A stretch of 64,000 nucleotides of DNA from an uncultured Gammaproteobacteria bacterium (GTDB taxonomy: Bacteria > Pseudomonadota > Gammaproteobacteria > SZUA-229). Below are positions 3,213 to 61,031 of the stretch, in pieces. Within the stretch, counting starts at the first letter, position 1. Each line of letters starts with the position of its first letter. Below the pieces are notes generated by a model. That model made no database searches. It had not been told where the DNA came from and saw nothing but the letters and a program-made list of their open reading frames with translations. The position numbers were made by a program, and so were the translations under genes. The stretch spans positions 17,020-81,019 of the forward strand of contig CAVWXQ010000006.1 of the NCBI GenBank assembly GCA_963759005.1. The letters are read 5' to 3'.

Positions 3213-4529
<1,317 letters not shown>

Positions 4530-4929: not shown

Positions 4930-5060
4930 TCTGCGTTGACGTGCATGGAAGCACTTATGTCCAGGGACGGACAGTATTTCGCAAGGAGCCAGGAAGGTGG
5001 TGCGATAATGTCGTGGACGCATGGATGCGTAGGAGCGACCATCTGCGTTCATCTGTGGAT
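4930..5060. repeat. Small interspersed repeat, family R1 (GCATGGATGCG core), flanked by a 9-bp direct repeat atctgcgtt
   Basis: Related copies lie at 8318..8400, 10797..10898 (inside mtnP) and 38463..38650. The direct repeat occurs at 4930-4938 and 5041-5049. Confidence 0.6.
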
Positions 5061-5086: not shown

Positions 5087-5830
5087 TTGCGGAAAAATAT
5101 TATGAACCACGCAATATGGGCAATCGTGCCAGCTGCCGGTATTGGCAAACGTATGCAGTCTGATGTCCCCAAACAATATCTTTCGTTAAACGGACGACCT
5201 GTCCTTGAACACACAATAAATACCTTACTGAAAAACATAAATATTTCTGGTATGGTTATTGCCTTACAGCAGGATGATGTCTATTTTGCGGATATAAAAA
5301 TACATACGAATAAACCGGTATTACGTGCAGCAGGCGGCAAAGAACGTGCTGATTCTGTATTAAATGCCTTAGCAACATTATTTCAGCACAATCAATTTGA
5401 TAACAACAAAGATTGGGTAATGGTGCATGACGCGGTTCGTGCCTGTTTACAACAGCAGGATATCGATAGACTGGTAAGCGAAGTGGCTGAGGATAAAAAT
5501 GGTGGATTATTAGCTTTGCCGGTACGTGACACCATGAAAAAACAGAACATGGGCGAATCCATTGCCAGCGTTGCAAAAACCATAAAACGGGAAAACCTCT
5601 GGCATGCGCTGACACCGCAGTATTTTCACGCTGCAAGCCTGAAAAATGCGCTGGAAAAAGCCCGGTTAGATAATATGCCTATAACGGATGAGTCTTCTGC
5701 AATGGAATTTGCCGGTTTTTCTCCGAGACTGGTGCAGGGTTATGAGGATAATATTAAAATTACCCGGCCTGATGATTTACGCCTGGCCAGTTTGTTTCTC
5801 CAGTCACAGAACTGTGATTACGATAAGTAA
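5087..5830 (+). CDS. ispD: 2-C-methyl-D-erythritol 4-phosphate cytidylyltransferase
   Basis: AIVPAAGIGKRM N-terminal motif and its position upstream of ispF. Confidence 0.9.
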   Translation: MRKNIMNHAIWAIVPAAGIGKRMQSDVPKQYLSLNGRPVLEHTINTLLKNINISGMVIALQQDDVYFADIKIHTNKPVLRAAGGKERADSVLNALATLFQHNQFDNNKDWVMVHDAVRACLQQQDIDRLVSEVAEDKNGGLLALPVRDTMKKQNMGESIASVAKTIKRENLWHALTPQYFHAASLKNALEKARLDNMPITDESSAMEFAGFSPRLVQGYEDNIKITRPDDLRLASLFLQSQNCDYDK

Positions 5831-5887
5831 TGCACTGAAATCGTTCCCGACGATTTTCAGTATACACTCCATCCATGGAGATAAAGA
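5831..5887. repeat. Hairpin repeat, family R3, ending in GGAGATAAAGAATG and supplying the SD for ispF
   Basis: tgcactgaaatcgttcccgacgattttcagtatacactccatccatggagataaagaatg, with 3.6 tandem copies at 51121..51305 and a mosaic copy at 9489..9560. Confidence 0.65.
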
Positions 5888-5894
5888 ATGAGTA

Positions 5895-7205: not shown

Positions 7206-7621
7206 GTCAAAGCTATATTGATGGGTTCGGACCACAGTGGTAGCCGAAGATTGACCAGTCAACATCCATGGCTGTGTTACCTTTCTTGTGAAAGAGCATG
7301 GCCAATCACTGCGAGATGTGGCTCGGCACACCGCTTCGCTGTTTCTCGACAACGGCCTCCTCGGCAACAGCTCCTGCGTTGCCCTAATAAGTTACATCCG
7401 TGTAACGATGCGTTGTCCTAATAAGTTATATTCGTGGACATATACATTGCACAGTACGACCACCATGGATGGTGGAAGTGCAGATATTACATATGTCCAC
7501 GGATGGACGGTAGTAGGGTAATGCAGGAGCAATTACCGAGGAGAAAATATCTGCCCGTCAATCCATGGACGTATTGCCAACTATGCTGACAGATCTACTA
7601 AACCATCAATATAGCTTTGAC
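7206..7621. mobile_element. MITE-like element, 416 bp, with perfect 19-bp terminal inverted repeats
   Basis: gtcaaagctatattgatgg at 7206-7224 and its reverse complement ccatcaatatagctttgac at 7603-7621. The interior carries R1 and R2 repeat modules and several CCATGG-centred palindromes. Confidence 0.65.
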
Positions 7622-9488: not shown

Positions 9489-9560
9489 GTGCACTGGAAT
9501 CGTTCCTAGGCACACCGCTTCGCTGCTCCTCGCTAACTGCTCCATCCATGGAGATAAATA
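9489..9560. repeat. Mosaic repeat: R3 left half joined to the R2 module (gcacaccgcttcgctg), ending in ccatggagataaa
   Basis: Its halves match 5831..5887 and 7321..7345. Confidence 0.55.
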
Positions 9561-10599: not shown

Positions 10600-10676
10600 T
10601 TTAGTGGTGAACTTACATCCTGTCAGCAAAATGTTTCGTCCAGTCTTAAGCAGACGTTCTCTGGAGGAGTGATAGT

Positions 10677-11537
10677 ATGAAACTGGCAATTATTGGCGGA
10701 AGCCTGTTTAACGAACCGGGTAATTTCATCAGGGTTACAGAAGAACAAATAAAAACACCCTTTGGTGAACCATCAGATATTTTCATTACTGGAACAATAA
10801 CCGCACCGCCGTCCTGGCTCCTTGCTGAATACCGTCCATCCATGGACATAACCGCACCGCCTTCCTGGCTCCTTGCTGAATACCGTCCATCCGTGGGCAT
10901 AAATGATGTTGAAGTGGTTTATTTAAACCGTCATGGTCATTCGCATCATTTAGCACCCCATCAAATTAACTACAGGGCCAACATGTTCGCCCTGAAAATA
11001 CTTGAAGTGACACATATTATTGCAGTCACGGCTGTTGGTGGCATAACTGAAAATATGCCACCGATGAAATGGGTGGTGCCCGATCAAATCATTGATTATA
11101 CCTATGGTCGTATGCAAACCTATAATGACGGCAATGAATCGGAAGTTAAACATATCGATTTTAGCTATCCATTTGATGATTTTTTACGAGATAAATTAAT
11201 TACAGCGCTGGATAAGAAGTCCTGTGCCTATGAAAAGCTGGCAACATACGGGGTAACACAGGGCCCTCGATTAGAATCCATCGCAGAAATTAAACGCATG
11301 CAGCGCGATGGCTGCGATATAGTTGGTATGACAGCCATGCCTGAAGCGGCATTAGCACGTGAACTGGAAATGAACTATGCCACACTCTCACTTGTTGTGA
11401 ACTGGGCCGCAGGTAAAGGGGGGAGTCCAGCACAGCAGGCTGAAGTCATTTCAATGGACGAAATAAAACAACGTATAGTGGATGGTAATGAAATAATTGA
11501 AAAGCTTATAAGCCACGTAGTTTCACTCCTTGGTTAG
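10677..11537 (+). CDS. mtnP: S-methyl-5'-thioadenosine phosphorylase carrying a 34-aa in-frame repeat insertion
   Basis: MtnP-like throughout (RHGHSHH, QINYRAN, GMTAMPEAALAREL). It is 286 aa against about 250 typical, and the excess is two tandem 51-bp R1 units at 10797..10898. Confidence 0.85.
   Translation: MKLAIIGGSLFNEPGNFIRVTEEQIKTPFGEPSDIFITGTITAPPSWLLAEYRPSMDITAPPSWLLAEYRPSVGINDVEVVYLNRHGHSHHLAPHQINYRANMFALKILEVTHIIAVTAVGGITENMPPMKWVVPDQIIDYTYGRMQTYNDGNESEVKHIDFSYPFDDFLRDKLITALDKKSCAYEKLATYGVTQGPRLESIAEIKRMQRDGCDIVGMTAMPEAALARELEMNYATLSLVVNWAAGKGGSPAQQAEVISMDEIKQRIVDGNEIIEKLISHVVSLLG
10797..10898. repeat. Two tandem 51-bp R1 units in frame within mtnP
   Basis: The units are near-identical. 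Their reverse complement matches the 4930..5060 copy (aaggagccaggaagg(t/c)ggtgcg). Confidence 0.75.
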
Positions 11538-11676
11538 CTGTAAATTTCGACTGTCTGTTAACACCCATTCCAGCCATTTTGACTGATATCGCTTTTCGCG
11601 ATATAAGGGGTCGGAGCCCTTTACATGTAAGCCATACAGCAGTAAAGTGTAAAAACCATGAAATAGGGGAAAACGG

Positions 11677-12375
11677 ATGCCAAGAAAACCACGATTTTAT
11701 CTACCCGGTGTGCCAGCACACATAGTGCAGCGCGGGCACAGCCGTGAACCCGTGTTTTTTGAAAGAGAAGATTACCAGGCCTATTTGGGTTGGTTGCAAG
11801 AAGCATCAGCGCGTTATAATTGTAAGGTACATGCTTATGTACTCATGACCAATCACATACATATACTTGCCACACCAGAAGATAAAAACAGCATTAGTTT
11901 AATGATGCAGTATATCGGGCGTCAGTACGTATCTTATATAAACCATACCTATGGTAGTAGTGGTTCGATATGGGAGGGTAGATATAAGTCGAATATCATC
12001 CATGATGAAACCTATTTATTGACCTGTATGCGTTATATTGAACTTAATCCGGTAAGAGCGGGTATGGTTAAATCACCTGGTGCATATCGCTGGTCCAGTT
12101 ATCAAGCGAATGCACAAGGGAAAGACAATGAAATAATAAATTTTCACCCTTTGTACAAATCATTAGGAAAAACCAAAGCACAACGCCTTGATGCTTATAA
12201 ATCATTGTTTAAGTTGCACATTGATGAAAAGCAACTAGATCTCATCCGCGCATCCTGGCAAACGGGGACGCCATTAGGTAATGACTATTTTAAACAGAAA
12301 GTTGAAGCGAAATTGAAATGCAAAGTGGGTCAAGCCAGACGTGGACGCCCTAAAAAGGGCTCTGACTCCATATAG
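11677..12375 (+). CDS. REP-associated tyrosine transposase (RAYT, IS200-like Y1 transposase)
   Basis: HIVQRGH ... MTNHIHIL (HuH motif) ... Y; 232 aa. A REP-like hairpin gatatcgcttttcgcgatat lies upstream at about 11597. Confidence 0.85.
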   Translation: MPRKPRFYLPGVPAHIVQRGHSREPVFFEREDYQAYLGWLQEASARYNCKVHAYVLMTNHIHILATPEDKNSISLMMQYIGRQYVSYINHTYGSSGSIWEGRYKSNIIHDETYLLTCMRYIELNPVRAGMVKSPGAYRWSSYQANAQGKDNEIINFHPLYKSLGKTKAQRLDAYKSLFKLHIDEKQLDLIRASWQTGTPLGNDYFKQKVEAKLKCKVGQARRGRPKKGSDSI

Positions 12376-12527
12376 CTGACCTCATATAGCTACCCCGTAT
12401 AGCTCATATAGCTGCTGATCCCATTACTGGTCGAGACTCCCAACAACGGACTGTCGTGCAGGTCAGATTGTTTAATTTTTAAATATGTTATGATTCGTGC
12501 ATCTGAAGATTATGTAAATATCTATAT

Positions 12528-34887: not shown

Positions 34888-35320
34888 ACCTAAATGTCAG
34901 TCGGGGTTCTTCTGGCTGTAAAAGAAATTCAAGGATTTTTAACATGGACATGGATCTATTTATCATGGATTTTTTTATCATAAATATAATTTGAGGAATT
35001 GTTTTCCTCTTATTTAATAGTACCTAAATGTCAGTCGGGGTTCTTCTGGCTGTAAAAGAAATTCAAGGATTTTTAACGTGGACATGGACATATTTAACAT
35101 GGACATGGATCTATTTATCATGGATTTTTTTATCATAAATATAATTTGAGGAATTGTTTTCCTCTTATTTAATAGTACCTAAATGTCAGTCGGGGTTCTT
35201 CTGGCTGTAAAAGAAATTCAAGGATTTTTAACATGGACATGGATATATTTAACATGGACATGGATTTATTTATCACGGATTTATAATAAACATAATTTTG
35301 AGGAATTGTTTTCCTCTATG
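34888..35320. repeat. Three tandem copies of a 134- to 155-bp AT-rich repeat inside a 1.4-kb non-coding leader
   Basis: Units start at 34888, 35022 and 35177. Each contains sub-repeats aacatggacatggat and a gaggaattgttttcctc hairpin. The second unit has a 24-bp internal duplication. Confidence 0.85.
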
Positions 35321-35399
35321 AGTATGGTTATGGCAAAAAGTTTGTGATGTTAATAAATTTTTATAAATTAACTAAAAACAATATTAATGAGGATGTGAG

Positions 35400-38300
35400 A
35401 ATGTTTATAAACACTCTGAAACAATTTCTCCGAAAAGCGACTTTTCTAACTGCTGCTGGTGCAATTATTTTTGCAACAGCAATGGTTACTTCTGTTGATG
35501 CAAGGGCCGGAGATATAGATATAGACCGCGCAAGCTGGAGCAACGACCGTGATCGACTGACAGTGCGTGGTGACAATGCACGAGATAACGATACCGTTAC
35601 TATCAGGTATGGTAAAAAAGAAGATAATGGTGTCGTGATTGGCACTACTCAGGCGGACGGTGATGGTGATTGGGAGTTTCGTATCTCTGCTATCGATCCA
35701 GTGCCGTGTGATGTAACCGCAGTAGACAGTCGCGACGACGATGATAAGGAAGTACGACGTGCACCAAGAGACTGTAGCAACGACGGTGGAGCACCACCAG
35801 CTGCGCAGTGTAACGATGGTATTGATAATGATGGCGATGGACTGACAGATTTTCCAGCTGATCCCGGATGTACGGATGTCAACGACAACGATGAGTTCAA
35901 TGCACCGCCACAACAAGATGCACAGTGTAACGATGGCCTCGATAACGATGGCGATGGCCTGACCGATTTTCCGGCTGATCCCGGATGTACGGATGTCAAC
36001 GACAACGATGAATTCAATGCACCGCCACAACAAGATGTGCAGTGTAACGATGGCATCGATAACGATAACGATGGTCTGACCGATTTTCCGGCTGATCCCG
36101 GATGTGTGGATGCTAACGACAATGATGAAATTGATCCTGTCGCGGTGAACTGTACGCCGCTTACCGGTAAATCCATTAACTCTACCAGCCAGACAGGTTG
36201 TGCAGAACAGGATGTACCCGAGGTTGCCACACTGCTAAATGGCAATTTCCGTGTATTAGCCATCAACGACCTGGGTATGCACTGTGGTGATTACGATACC
36301 CGTATCTCCAGTATCCTGCCACCATTCCAGGTACTGCTAGGCCAGGTGATCCAGCGCGGCGCTACGCCAACGTTGAACCCGGAGGGAGTGAGCCTGTCGT
36401 ACTCTGCGACTTCTAACTCGCAAGATCCTGTCCTGAATCGGATCGGAGCTATACGCGGCCTGAATGACGATGGTACCACTTACAAGACTAACTTCTGGGA
36501 TGCGGTTGCAGGCGGTGCTTATGATCCGTTCTACCCGGCCATTGTTACACCGTTGCTTAATGGACCGTTCCCGGTCATCGCGGACATCGGCCTGCCGGTA
36601 CCCAATGTGGAAGAGCTCTACATCGGTGCAGACGGTGTGGTCAACAGCGGCGACGAGACTCTCAGCGCAGTGCAGCACACCATGCCAGGGCTGAACAACC
36701 CATACTGTCCTCAACGATCCAAAGACGGTCAACGAGCACTATGGCGACAAGCCCTTCTTCGTTAACTTCCCGTTCGGTTATGTAGCTGAGAATGTGAACT
36801 GGTACGAAGGTGCAGGCGTTCCGTTAGCCGCTTATGATGATTTCGGTTATGAGAACTCCTACCCACTGGTTCGCGTTGAAGCCAAGCAGGGCAACACCAC
36901 TGTTGCCACGATTGATACCGTGCTGCCAATCTCCGGTGAGGCAAGCTGCATCAACTGTCACTCCGATCCAGCCGACGTGCAGACCAGCCGTACCAGTCAA
37001 CCAACTGATACGCTGGTTACTGCCGGACTGCCGGTGGCAGTAAGTCTGGATGATCCGGACCAGAACCTGCCTATTGACGTCAGCACCGAATATGCAGCGG
37101 ACATCAACATCCTGCGTTTGCACGATCTGAAACATGGTGCGAACTATGTGGACACCGCTGGTAGCATCAACACCGTGTGACGTTACTGCCAATGCGGGCA
37201 ACGGCGATGCCAACTGCCTGATTAACAAGGCGCTGGTGCAGGGCGAACCGGCGGTCTGTCAGACGTGTCACTACACCCCGGCGCTTGATCTTGCGCAGGT
37301 TGGTCCTGTAGCCGGTGCTGTTGGTACCGATGCCAATGGACGTAACCAGGTGGCGCATTCAAGTAACTCCAACGTAATGCACAGCCACCACGGTGGTCTT
37401 GGTAACCTGTTCCCGCCAATGCCGGCACCGATTCAGAACGGCTGATGGTACTATCACCAACCAGACCGATCGTCTGGCGGTGTTAGAAGATACCTGTTAC
37501 CAGTGTCACCCGGGCACCACCTCGCAGTGTCTGCGTGGCGCGATGTTCAACGGTGGCATGCTGTGTAACGACTGCCATGGCAGCATGGAGCAGGTCGGTG
37601 CTGACTTCTCCGCTGGTGTCTCTCCACAGAACCCGGGTGCGTTTGTGCTGGGCGGCAACTTCTATGACCCTAACGACCCGCAACCGCGTGTGCCATGGGC
37701 CAACGAGCCGGGTTGTGGTTCATGCCATACCGGTGACGTCCGCGACAACATGGCGGGTACAGCCAATACTATAGCCAATACACGTGATGTAGACGGCAAC
37801 GTCGACAATCTGCGTCTGCGCGTGGCGTACGTAGCGGATCCGAATGACCCGACGGTCAATCCGAAGGCCGCGCCTATCGTACCTACCAACAAGCGCTTTG
37901 CTGAGCCAGCCGTTCCGGCTACGTTTACTAACGCTGACGGCAGTACGTTTGCCAACCCGGGTGCGGGTAATCCGCAGCTGTACCGGGTGAGTACCGGTCA
38001 CGGTGGTGTCATGTGTGAAGGCTGTCATGGTGCAACCCATGCGGAATGGCCAAATGCCAATCCGGCATCCAACGACAATGTCACGGCAGATCAGTTCCAG
38101 GGTCACACCGGCCCTATTATCGAGTGCGGCGAGTGTCATACCGACATCAACGCTCTGGGTACTAACGGTTCTACCAACAGCCTGCAGGGACCACACGGCA
38201 TGCATGTAGTGGGTAACACAAGCTTCGCTGACGGTGGCCATCAATCAAACCTCAATCGCAATGCCTGTCGCGACTGTCATGGTCAGAACGGTGAAGGTTC

Positions 38301-38471: not shown

Positions 38472-38650
38472 ATGTACAGGATGTACGGTATGCCGCGGGC
38501 GCATGGATGCGCAGGAGCGGTGAATGTACAGGATGTACGGTATGCCGCGGGCGCATGGATGCGCAGGAGCGGTGAATGTCAGGATGTACGGTATGCCGCG
38601 GGCGCATGGATGCGCAGGAGCGGTGAATGTCAGGATGTACGGTATGTCTA
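38463..38650. repeat. Roughly 3.3 tandem copies of a 57-bp R1-family unit
   Basis: caggatgtacggtatgccgcgggcgcatggatgcgcaggagcggtgaatgt(a) repeated. Confidence 0.85.
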
Positions 38651-38865
38651 AAAGAGCCATGGATGGAGGTGAGACGAATGCCAATTTATGGGAGGTATAC
38701 TCTTGCCTAAGAGTCAGAACGGCTTAAAGACAGTAATAAACGAGTGTATAGAGATATCTGGGATGCTCAATGCATTATTTTCTTTCATAAACCTAAAAAA
38801 ATCAGTTAACCCTACCGAGTTGATAAAACAGGCATAAATTCTGCTTTTTTGTCTCCCGCCTAGTT

Positions 38866-51120: not shown

Positions 51121-51305
51121 CAATTTTCAGTCACTACATCCCTGGAGATGCACTGAAATTGTTCCAGACAATTTTTAGTATACACTCCATCCCTGGAGAT
51201 GCACTGAAATTGTTCCAGACAATTTTTAGTATACACTCCATCCCTGGAGATGCACTGAAATTGTTCCAGACAATTTTCAGTATACACTCCATCCCTGGAG
51301 ATAAA
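51121..51305. repeat. 3.6 tandem copies of a 51-bp R3 unit, ending in CCCTGGAGATAAAAAATG and supplying the SD for moeA
   Basis: ccctggagatgcactgaaattgttccagacaatttttagtatacactccat repeated three times. The ORFs in the track that translate the repeat are artefacts. Confidence 0.85.
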
Positions 51306-58314: not shown

Positions 58315-61031
58315 GTATCAAATTCAGCCTGAATGGCGAAACCATAAACGCCAAAGAAAACGAGACCATATTTAATGCAGCGCACCGACATGGCGTAGAA
58401 ATCCCGCATTTGTGCTACCGGTAAGACCTGGGCGAAGTCAGGAAACTGTCGATCCTGTATGGTAGAGATTGAAGGTGAACGCGTACTTGCGCCTTCCTGT
58501 TGTCGCAAACCCGCCGCTGACATGAAAGTTCATAGCAATAATGAACGTGTCTTAAAGGCGCAGAGAATGGTGCTGGAATTATTACAATCCGATATGCCTG
58601 CAAACGGTCTACACGCCTGACAATGAATTACAGCAATGGGCGGATAAATTAGGCGTTAAGGCATCTCGTTTTGAGGCTCGAACTGAATAAAGTGGCCAGG
58701 GATGAATCTCATCCAGCGATGACAGTAAATCTCGATGCCTGTATTCACTGCACTCGCTGTTTACGCGCCTGTCGTGATATACAGGTCTATGACATTATTG
58801 GGCTTGCCAAACGTGGCTCTAGAACCAAAGTTGTTTTTGACCTTGATGATGTCATGGGTAAGAGTGCCTGTGTGGGCTGTGGTGAATGTGTACAGGCCTG
58901 TCCAACGGGTGCACTCATGCCAGCGGGTGGTGTTGGCCTGATTGAACCAGATAAAACCGTAGACTCGGTTTGTCCCTATTGTGGTGTGGGTTGCCTGCTT
59001 AACTATCATGTGAAAGACAATAAAATTCTTCACGTGAAGGGACGAAACGGTCCAGCAAATAAAGGGCGTCTGTGTGTAAAAGGTCGCTTCGGTTTTGACT
59101 ATATCCACCACCCTGAACGTTTAACAAAACCATTGATTCGCCGCAGTGATGTGCCAAAGTCTGCCGAGCTGGATTTTGACCCAGCCAATCCATTGGCAAT
59201 ATTTCGTGAAGCTAGCTGGGATGAGGCACTGGACTTTGCTGCACAGGGTTTAACAAAAATAATTAAAAATGACGGCAAATATGCACTGGCCGGTTTAGGT
59301 TCCGCCAAAGGCAGTAGTGAAGAAGCTTATTTATTTCAGAAACTAATTCGATTAGGCTTTGGCACGAATAATGTAGATCACTGTACTCGCCTGTGTCATG
59401 CCTCTTCGGTAACAGCGCTACTGGAAGGCCTTGGTTCGGGAGCGGTATCCAACTCAATGGCCGATGTTTGTCATTCTGATGTCATTATTATTATCGGTGC
59501 CAACCCGACGGTGAATCATCCTGTCGGTGCGACATGGATGAAAAATGCGATTAAGAATGGTACCAGGCTTATTTTGATGGACCCCCGGGGTTCTGAGCTT
59601 ATTCGACATGCCACCCATTTTGTGCGATTTAAACCCGCCTCTGATGTTGCCTTGCTCAATGCCATGATGAATGTCATCGTAACAGAAGGACTTGTTGACC
59701 AGAATTATATCGATTTTCACACCGAACAATACGACCAGCTCAGCTTGCACTTGCAGCCTTATACACCAGAGGCTATGGAAGATATTTGCGGTGTGACGGC
59801 AAAGCAAATTCGAGAAACTGCACGTCTTTTTGCAACCGCTAACAACGCGATGATTCTATGGGGTATGGGGATATCGCAACATGTTCATGGCACTGACAAT
59901 GCGCGTTGCCTGATTTCCTTATGTTTGATTACGGGACAGATTGGTCGTCCTGGTACGGGACTTCATCCTCTGCGCGGGCAAAATAATGTGCAGGGCGCAT
60001 CAGATGTGGGATTAATTCCAATGGTTTTCCCCGATTATCAACCAGTGGATGATCCTGCTGTACAAAAGCGATTTACTCAGTTATGGAATGTAAATGTGCT
60101 GGACAATAAAGCGGGGCTAACCACCGTCGAGATGATGAATCACGCCTACGAAGGCTTGATTAAGGGCATGTATATTGAAGGCGAAAACCCGGCTATGTCA
60201 GACCCTGATGTACTTCATGCGCGAACTGCGCTGGCAAAGTTGGAGCATCTGGTGGTACAGGATTTATTTCTCACCGAAACGGCTTTTTATGCTGATGTTG
60301 TATTGCCAGCTGCAGCAAATCCGGAAAAGACCGGCACCTATATCAATTCTGACCGTAGTGTGCAGATGGGTCGGCAGGCGGTTACACCACCGGGTGATGC
60401 ACAACAGGATTGGTGGATTATTCAGGAAATAGCCTGTCGCTTAGGTCTGGACTGGACATATTCAGGACCTGAAGAGATTTTTAATGAAATGCGGCTGGCG
60501 ATGGATTCAATAGCAGGAATAACATGGTCGCGTTTGGAGCAGGAAAGTGTCACCTACCCTTGCCATGAAGAAGGTGACCCCGGTGAGCCGATAATCTTTA
60601 AAGATGGCTACCCAACTCCGTCAGGGCGAGCAAAACTTGTACCAGCAGATATTGTGCCGCCCGATGAGGTACCTGATGAAGACTACCCCTTTATTTTAAT
60701 TACCGGAAGGCAATTAGAGCATTGGCACACAGGCAGCATGACGCGTCGTGCAACCGTGTTAGATGCATTAGAGCCTGAGCCCTGGATCGCTGTGAATGTA
60801 CGAGATGCATTGACTCTGGGACTGGAAGAAGATGATTTTTTGTCGTTGCAAACCCGTCGTGGTCAGCTTAAGGCAAAAGTTAGATTGAGTGATAACTCGC
60901 CTGCTGGTACTGTTTTCATGCCGTTTTGTTATTTTGAGGCAGCTGCTAATGTGCTGACAAATGCCGCGCTTGACCCGCAGGCAAAAATTGCTGAGGTAAA
61001 GTATTGTGCTGTTCGACTGTCGCCATCTTAG
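58312..61031 (+). pseudogene. NAD-dependent formate dehydrogenase alpha subunit (FdsA-like, molybdopterin), with four frameshifts in the N-terminal 400 bp
   Basis: N-terminal 2Fe-2S region MSIKFSLNGETI..LCY / GNCRSCMVEIEGER / ELQQWADKLGVKASRF in different frames. An intact 786-aa remainder runs from 58671 with CIHCTRCLRAC, CVGCGECVQACP and molybdopterin domains. Confidence 0.75.

Follow-up and report, generated by a model that had tools for sequence, protein, structure and literature searches.

Here we describe a 51-bp repeat, hereafter referred to as module A, that lies twice, head to tail and in frame, within the gene for S-methyl-5'-thioinosine phosphorylase (MTIP) on a 64,000-nucleotide stretch of DNA from an uncultured gammaproteobacterium (contig CAVWXQ010000006.1, positions 17,020 to 81,019; this whole stretch is termed the window). 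The insert is most probably tolerated passenger DNA, selfish or neutral, that stems from a lineage-specific family of 51-bp hairpin repeats and is translated as a disordered loop without a functional domain. The insertion site is empty in most homologues, unit number differs between close relatives, and the same module recurs in spacers and in other genes of related uncultured sulfur-type bacteria.

Two module A units in MTIP

Tandem Repeats Finder reported a repeat at 10797-10902 (period 51, 2.1 copies, 94% matches, score 191), and the 51-bp unit was found twice with at most three mismatches, against an expectation of 0 from 100 shuffles. The initial annotation had placed two tandem 51-bp units at 10797-10898; these coordinates, the frame and the peptide agree with the repeat call and with translation of the open reading frame (ORF). 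When filled sites are compared with empty ones, the biological phase proves to be shifted right by 3 nt, to 10800-10901; bases 10797-10799 (ATA) then belong to the host as the Ile41 codon and lie outside the insert. Both units, with three mismatches between them, are in frame and together add 34 residues (42-75): unit 1 (ACCGCACC...GGACATA) encodes TAPPSWLLAEYRPSMDI (residues 42-58) and unit 2 encodes TAPPSWLLAEYRPSVGI (residues 59-75). Unit 1 carries the signature hairpin GTCC-ATCCAT-GGAC, which has decayed to GTCC-ATCCGT-GGGC in unit 2 (Table 1).

Each unit comprises 17 codons and is stop-free in five of six frames. We dropped stop avoidance as a designed feature, our own estimate for five of six open frames in 51 bp at a GC content of about 59% being approximately 0.18. 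A CRISPR array was ruled out, as the MTIP units stand directly head to tail with no spacers. On the strand opposite MTIP, the stop-free frames of the repeat produce two spurious ORFs, one of 84 aa at 10646-10900 (-) and one of 56 aa at 10786-10956 (-), and one homologue (P0020, 225 aa) was called with its start inside the insert.

The host gene is intact and conserved

The host protein has the PNP_UDP_1 Pfam domain (MTAP/PNP fold) and scores 301.7 bits with the NCBIfam equivalog model for MTIP (NF006599, cut-off 223), compared with 233 bits with the MTAP equivalog model (TIGR01694), which is under the cut-off of 274.85. The gene had initially been called mtnP. That name gives the correct superfamily but not the enzyme in the strict sense, and on sequence grounds the gene is best called S-methyl-5'-thioinosine phosphorylase. 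The closest solved structure by sequence is the Pseudomonas aeruginosa PA3004 methylthioinosine phosphorylase (3OZB; phmmer, E = 1.4e-57), which is also the best fold match of the core of the host model (Foldseek, TM-score 0.79, target-normalised). The gene upstream encodes a hypoxanthine-guanine phosphoribosyltransferase (NF006605), which fits an MTIP enzyme releasing hypoxanthine.

Outside the insert, host codons display ratios of non-synonymous to synonymous differences per site (pN/pS) of 0.15-0.25 against six relatives, both insert-bearing and insert-free, values that indicate purifying selection. The phosphate-binding and catalytic columns are invariant in the homologue alignment, and G7-G8-S9 and N84-R85-H86-G87, which bracket the insert, are nearly invariant or invariant. 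The initial view that a housekeeping enzyme tolerates the repeat agrees with this constraint. An assembly artefact, in which a repeat was mis-assembled into the gene, or a dead gene would be extremely improbable explanations. Short repeats do mis-assemble in metagenomes, and most of the related sequences come from metagenome-assembled genomes (MAGs) or metagenome contigs, but independent NCBI, ENA, JGI and Logan assemblies have in-frame inserts at the identical codon with the gene continuous on both sides; the ORF, moreover, is intact, with invariant catalytic and phosphate-binding columns and the low pN/pS given above.

Insert-free orthologues are mostly 252 aa long and read ...G-T-I/N-D-V-E-V-V... 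at the site (the slash marks the insertion point here and below). All hidden Markov model (HMM) and PDB alignments of the host protein split at the insert: query residues 34-79 correspond to just 10 residues in 3OZB, and the phmmer alignment opens a 34-residue gap where the insert sits. In an AlphaFold2 model built from a shallow 21-sequence alignment (mean pLDDT 67), residues 46-74 are modelled as coil at a pLDDT under 50, and the strands on either side span residues 36-42 and 77-84. The insert is thereby predicted to sit at the tip of a beta-hairpin, consistent with the earlier placement in a loop between the N-terminal glycine-rich region and the RHGHSHH motif. By inference, this tip would lie at the opposite end of the second strand, which ends in N84-R85-H86-G87, from the active site.

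The insert is lineage-specific and varies among relatives

We compared the window with its 120 best homologues (121 sequences in all). The site is empty in 111, and something is inserted in the remaining 10, window included: 51 aa in P0001, 34 aa in the window and P0003, 17 aa in P0002 and P0018, 8 aa in P0004 and P0005, and 7 aa in P0008, P0010 and P0011. Only near relatives carry inserts, and no unrelated taxon among the homologues examined has the 17- or 34-residue segment, which bears out the proposal that the insertion is lineage-specific. The reading frame is kept in all carriers.

At the DNA level, empty sites read GGAACATTA/AATGATG in L058 and GGAACCATT/AATGATG in L057, and the one-unit relative L004 has exactly 51 additional bases (ACCGCACC...GGACATA). 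L001 and L003 contain a second, distinct 51-bp module, B (GACCCACATGGACGTGGG...CAATTTTCAGCC), nested in reverse orientation after GAATAC. Remnants of 24 bp in L005 and 21 bp in L007 look like internal deletions of a unit. Across relatives, MTIP has zero, one, two or three units; the window and L001, which are 95% identical across 9 kb, still differ by the B unit. One metagenome record (GCA_003704855.1, the source of L001 and L006) holds two MTIP alleles, one of 303 aa containing three units and one of 260 aa in which an 8-aa remnant is left. Populations that are related but differ in insert state thus coexist in one sample.

Differences inside the insert are mostly non-synonymous, in small counts. 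Unit 2 of the window differs from the L001 unit by three non-synonymous and no synonymous changes, and the insert pN of about 0.08 is near the host pS (0.09) and six times the host pN (0.014). The residue swaps are W/G/S/L, M/V and D/G.

The initial annotation had left room for exaptation, that is, recruitment of the 17-residue units as a selected functional surface loop, for example an interaction or regulatory segment. Inserts or remnants persist at the MTIP site over relatives whose synonymous divergence reaches about 0.35 substitutions per site, and the frame is kept there without exception, as such a role would predict. Near-identical MTIP genes, however, carry zero to three units, relatives have 7-8-aa remnants or precisely empty sites, the residues change freely, and the insert is predicted as low-confidence coil. 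In other proteins, described below, module DNA is used in four frames, so that no particular peptide is selected. We regard exaptation as decidedly unlikely and find the proposal unsupported.

The module is dispersed and recurs in frame in other genes

A degenerate pattern for module A with 20 specified bases (CGCACCNCCNTCCNNGCTCCTTGC) matched 48 loci in approximately 14 MAGs titled uncultured Thiotrichaceae, Thiotrichales or Gammaproteobacteria, and 58 additional metagenome contigs. One further match, on a Bacteroidota contig, came without the rest of the module and is apparently due to chance; a search of viral contigs with the same pattern gave no match. The dispersed copies are mostly non-coding and in both orientations, and head-to-tail pairs and triplets at exact 51-bp spacing are common. 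Of the 27 arrays whose period is at least 20 bp, 10 have a period of 51 bp, over several module types. Within the window, a reversed copy is set in a run of four small hairpins (4940-5045) in the spacer that separates the enolase/ftsB region from ispD. This copy and the more than 100 loci in MAGs and metagenomes establish that the module occurs elsewhere, including in spacers in the opposite orientation, as had been claimed.

Dispersal on this scale bears on whether the insert could be a native coding segment duplicated locally as a coding variable-number tandem repeat (VNTR), the intergenic look-alikes being unrelated or derived. The MTIP duplication is perfectly tandem and in frame, and unit number differs between relatives as it does in coding VNTRs. 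A native segment would nevertheless have to be reconciled with its complete absence from 111 of 121 homologues and from the solved structure 3OZB, and with a 51-bp unit that recurs at over 100 unrelated loci, most of them non-coding, in either orientation and in four frames. We give this explanation almost no weight.

Copies inside genes were found by scanning stop-free stretches around each module copy, followed by comparison with Pfam and the PDB. Besides MTIP, module A lies in frame inside at least ten genes of related uncultured bacteria, in quanta of 17 residues. In MurD the insert falls within Mur_ligase_C and corresponds to an exact 17-residue gap against 8DP2; alleles have either 17 aa (a single unit) or 34 aa (an A+B composite) at one site. 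KsgA/RsmA shows an exact 17-residue gap against Escherichia coli 7AFO_Y. RecO carries the module within RecO_C, in two alleles, and SbcC has two units, located after the N-terminal and before the C-terminal ATPase motifs. The other hosts are FlhF (N-terminal region), BamA (between an apparent N-terminal hydrophobic signal segment and the POTRA-matched region), Sat/CysC (within the ATP-sulfurylase domain), an AAA_22 protein (three to four units), and RseA and a SPOR-domain protein (in-frame internal copies). The description of such an insertion as rare therefore holds for bacteria generally but not for this lineage.

Every coding copy has a length of 3n and no stop codon, and the genes between them read four of the five open frames, with the module in either orientation (...APPSWLLAEYRPSMD..., ...NRTAVLAPCEIPSIPGH..., ...MSMDGRYSARSQDGGA... 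and ...YVHGGTVSRKEPGRRCD...). The KsgA insert is present in 2 of 120 homologues, and the difference between the filled gene and its closest empty-site relative is exactly 51 bp. Read along the module strand, the site is GTAATTTTT/AATGCCGGG when empty; when filled, GTAATTTTT precedes the unit (ATCGCACC...GGACATA) and ATTGCGGGG follows it. The unit ends are identical in the KsgA and MTIP events. Site-specific length polymorphism like that of MTIP, with either a single 17-aa unit or the 34-aa A+B composite at one position, is seen in MurD (L085, L087, L072 and L052) and in RecO (L068 and L015), which suggests that several essential genes contain hot spots for insertion or long-standing insertions that undergo turnover.

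Table 1. Coordinates of the MTIP gene, its module units and related features in the window.
Feature	Position	Strand	Details
MTIP gene (MTAP/PNP fold)	10677..11537	+	286 aa, insert counted
Unit 1, module A	10800..10850	+	residues 42-58
Unit 2, module A	10851..10901	+	residues 59-75
Signature hairpin, unit 1	10834..10847	+	GTCC-ATCCAT-GGAC
Decayed hairpin, unit 2	10885-10898	+	GTCC-ATCCGT-GGGC
Module A, reversed intergenic copy	4956..5006	-	86% over 50 bp (blastn); enolase/ftsB region to ispD
Single D-type module	5830..5884	+	GCACTGAAATCGTTCC...CTCC-ATCCAT-GGAG-AT; between ispD and ispF
Intergenic mosaic of related hairpin modules	7380..7570		includes a partial B-type unit; rearranged relative to the 95%-identical L001
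Related module	9490..9557	+	ends CTCC-ATCCAT-GGAG-AT; between nagZ and a dsrE-like gene
C-type array, 51-bp module, intergenic	38472..38680	-	about 4 copies; GCGC-ATCCAT-GCGC plus GTAC-ATCCT-GTAC; homologous to A
D-type array, 51-bp module, intergenic	51132..51302	+	3.4 copies; ends 5 nt before the moeA start codon
RAYT ORF	11677-12375		downstream of MTIP; 82 bits, cut-off 80 (NCBIfam)

A conserved loop on variable stems

Module A belongs to a family of module types that share a skeleton and, most of all, small hairpins, in each of which a conserved loop caps a stem of 4-5 bp whose sequence is free (GTCC-ATCCAT-GGAC, CTCC-ATCCAT-GGAG, GCGC-ATCCAT-GCGC, CACC-ATCCAT-GGTG and GTAC-ATCCT-GTAC are examples). 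In the window, which was not chosen for this feature, perfectly complementary 4-mers flank 10 of 65 ATCCAT hexamers (15.4%), with seven different stems. Over the module-bearing loci, 76 of 326 ATCCAT hexamers have complementary flanks, with 18 different stems, compared with 0-1.7% for nine control hexamers. Because the ATCCAT loop is kept while the stems vary, this is covariation: what is preserved is the structure and not the sequence of the stem.

Strong secondary structure of the A unit was rejected. A single unit folds at -10.3 kcal/mol (z = -0.9, RNA fold against shuffles) and the dimer has z = -1.2, neither better than shuffles. The A+B composite forms a 9-bp stem (z = -2.1), and the C and D arrays are more structured than A (z = -4.7 and -3.6, respectively). 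An Rfam gathering scan over the entire 64-kb window found no match. We also rejected an orientation-based RNA function, since intergenic ATCCAT loops in the co-directional block at 1-12 kb are two sense and five antisense, without bias. One ATCCAT hairpin, at 59184 in a molybdopterin oxidoreductase gene, has no further module features and was treated as chance.

The two intergenic arrays have distinct settings. A multihaem cytochrome gene borders the C-type array on one side, and on the other is the 3' end of a DDE transposase gene (PF13701/PF01609; 38866-40416) on the opposite strand. The D-type array fills the spacer between a MoCF_biosynth gene and moeA, and each of its units ends in CTCC-ATCCCT-GGAG-AT. 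A Shine-Dalgarno-like GGAG just 5' of the moeA ATG pairs with CTCC in the hairpin, and a like arrangement is found at 5867-5890; translation initiation may be affected.

Other length variation and repeats were noted in the window. Enolase (3222-4529) has 435 aa, compared with 426 aa in most homologues; relative to L001 it has a net 15-bp (5-codon) in-frame indel at 3983-3995, in a surface-like region and without relation to the 51-bp modules. At 34938-35317, just upstream of an ORF at 35344-36765, there is a tandem repeat of 155 bp (2.5 copies, 95% matches); the ORF, which has no Pfam match, itself has 2.8 in-frame copies of a 117-bp repeat at 35802-36129. This second repeat encodes D/G/N-rich, DGDGLTD-like sequence, which suggests calcium binding.

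A neighbouring RAYT is unlikely to be the source

The ORF downstream of MTIP passes the NCBIfam model for RAYT (REP-associated tyrosine transposase, where REP denotes repetitive extragenic palindromic elements; Table 1). We therefore weighed whether module A could be the REP/REPIN substrate of this enzyme, which would have put it into MTIP. Besides the presence of the ORF, the small hairpins of the module are in keeping with such an origin, as are two filled/empty pairs without a consistent target-site duplication, as in HUH/Y1 single-strand transposition. The RAYT is, however, bracketed by its own 21-nt inverted repeat (TATAAGGGGTCGGAGCCCTTT at 11602-11622 and AAAGGGCTCTGACTCCATATA at 12354-12374), a sequence with no relation to the module and without a further copy in the window. 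By the flanking criterion, which serves to match RAYTs to their REPs, a pairing of module and RAYT finds no support, no module being present at the RAYT flanks. L001 lacks the RAYT yet has a three-unit insert, and no RAYT homologue was found in 363 kb of module-bearing loci. REP stems, moreover, are 5-13 bp long, conserved and GTAG- or CGTC-tagged (PMC3733652), in contrast to the conserved loop and variable stems of the module. An origin from this RAYT is accordingly unlikely.

The RAYT unit itself is missing in the syntenic, 95%-identical L001, where an SBP_bac gene comes after MTIP, and thus looks like either a recent arrival or a break in synteny. Short direct repeats resembling CCATATAGCT follow the RAYT, at 12362-12404.

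Proposed insertion and turnover of the units

We propose that a unit with fixed ends (5'-A[C/T]CGCACC...GGACATA-3') entered MTIP between the Ile41 codon (ATA) and the next AAT codon, at the beta-hairpin tip approximately eight residues upstream of the phosphate-binding NRHG. Among close relatives the array then came to differ in the number and make-up of its units, giving zero to three units, the nested reverse B unit and the 21-24-bp deletion remnants. The insert would be tolerated because the unit is a multiple of three, is stop-free in five of six frames and occupies a turn at the strand end opposite the active site. Insertion may be essentially random as to frame, with selection purging events that are out of frame or contain stops.

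Movement of single units may depend on an enzyme that, like those of the HUH/Y1 type, acts on single-stranded DNA, recognises the small hairpins there and leaves the target site unduplicated. The MTIP insert is flanked on both sides by ATA/TAA, and the KsgA site reads TTTTT/unit/ATTGCG, with no duplication in any phase. When all phases were tried, no target-site duplication fitted both MTIP and KsgA, the two filled/empty pairs, in both of which the empty site is diverged. Slippage, unequal recombination or the insertion of a unit beside the end of one already present would let arrays grow; the ...CATA end of the unit resembles the preferred left flanks (...AATA/ in MTIP and ...CATA/ in MurD) and could favour such growth.

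A more specific possibility, which we put forward tentatively and hold to be less probable than not, is that the units form an undescribed class of mobile DNA: 17-codon single-strand elements that are recognised by a hairpin with conserved ATCCAT loop and free stem, moved by an enzyme, perhaps precisely excised, without target duplication, and prone to land beside their own ...CATA ends, whereby exact 51-bp arrays are built. If so, the fixed 3n length would make them frame-neutral units, and length polymorphism would recur at hot spots in MurD, KsgA, BamA and MTIP.

Several observations weigh against reading the insert as a passenger that arrived from a mobile family. The distribution is patchy, with carriers interspersed among empty-site sequences on a neighbour-joining tree of the host protein; carrier P0018 lies in another clade of that tree, and empty-site L058 (pS 0.215) is nearer the window than the carriers L003 and L005 (pS about 0.35). 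One old insertion is thus insufficient, and precise loss, hot-spot reinsertion or recombination is needed as well. The substitution counts in the insert are very small, the AlphaFold2 model of the host protein is of moderate confidence and gives a single-chain view, and no mobilising enzyme emerged from the analysis. With these points taken into account, tolerated passenger DNA is still the explanation that we consider probable.

Relation to known repeat families

In behaviour, the module is closest to the Rickettsia palindromic elements (RPEs). In the passages on RPEs in PMC10969869, which cite Ogata et al. 2000 (Science 290:347) and 2002, these are short non-autonomous repeats that lie in frame in many housekeeping genes and also between genes, and are read as selfish DNA within genes. 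The same passages give them as approximately 100-150 bp long, palindromic along their length, usually single and restricted to Rickettsia. RPEs and the module are alike in that a repeat family is in frame in several unrelated genes, translated at fold-compatible positions and also intergenic. The module is set apart from RPEs as described by its 51-bp length, its weak self-complementarity (z = -0.9), its head-to-tail arrangement even inside genes and its use of four frames, and its hosts are free-living Thiotrichales-labelled gammaproteobacteria.

In anatomy, it is closest to the mosaics of REPs and bacterial interspersed mosaic elements (BIMEs): small GC-rich stem-loops in an AT-richer genome, mainly extragenic and in mosaic clusters, several of which occupy the spacers at 4.9-9.6 kb, in a window that has a RAYT. 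Occasional intragenic REP units are known (PMC3733652). Unlike REPs and REPINs, the module has variable 4-5-bp stems, a conserved ATCCAT hexaloop and a fixed 51-bp length and period, and the RAYT is flanked by another repeat.

Bacterial MITEs (miniature transposable elements with inverted repeats) within genes include ERIC/RU elements (PMC2759123) and Coxiella QMITE1 (PMC5896051; reviewed in PMC10969869), and the module resembles them as a small non-autonomous repeat able to make in-frame fusions or insertions in host ORFs. It differs in having no terminal inverted repeats (the end A[C/T]CGCACC... lacks complementarity to the end ...GGACATA, and the termini are unpaired in the fold) and in being far shorter (enterobacterial RU units are 103-168 bp; PMC2759123); no target-site duplication fits both of the two diverged filled/empty pairs. 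The label REP- or MITE-like, applied initially, is thus apt for the behaviour of the module but fails on the defining tests of both families. With coding VNTRs the module shares in-frame polymorphism in unit number (zero to three units in MTIP, one or two in MurD), whereas it is not native to the gene and is a dispersed element common to non-coding DNA and other genes. Thiomargarita has MITEs and introns that disrupt genes (PMC4853749), and a search of the literature on large sulfur bacteria for elements of this kind found nothing resembling the 51-bp family. This repeat family, by its anatomy a member of neither the RPEs nor the REP/BIME mosaics, is a different and apparently undescribed one.

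To our knowledge, in-frame colonisation of essential genes by short repeats has been documented mainly in obligate intracellular Rickettsia. RPE-like behaviour is now found, with a much smaller and tandem-forming unit, in an uncultured lineage known solely from sediment, cold-seep and other environmental assemblies. For annotation, such inserts split HMM matches in two and can mislead gene callers. A hairpin that keeps its loop while the stem varies, together with a quantum fixed at 51 bp, points to a specific mechanism of mobilisation or maintenance. The natural series of 17-residue loop insertions, and multiples thereof, in the well-understood enzymes MTIP, MurD, KsgA, RecO and BamA is useful for the study of insertion tolerance and of the origin of new protein segments.

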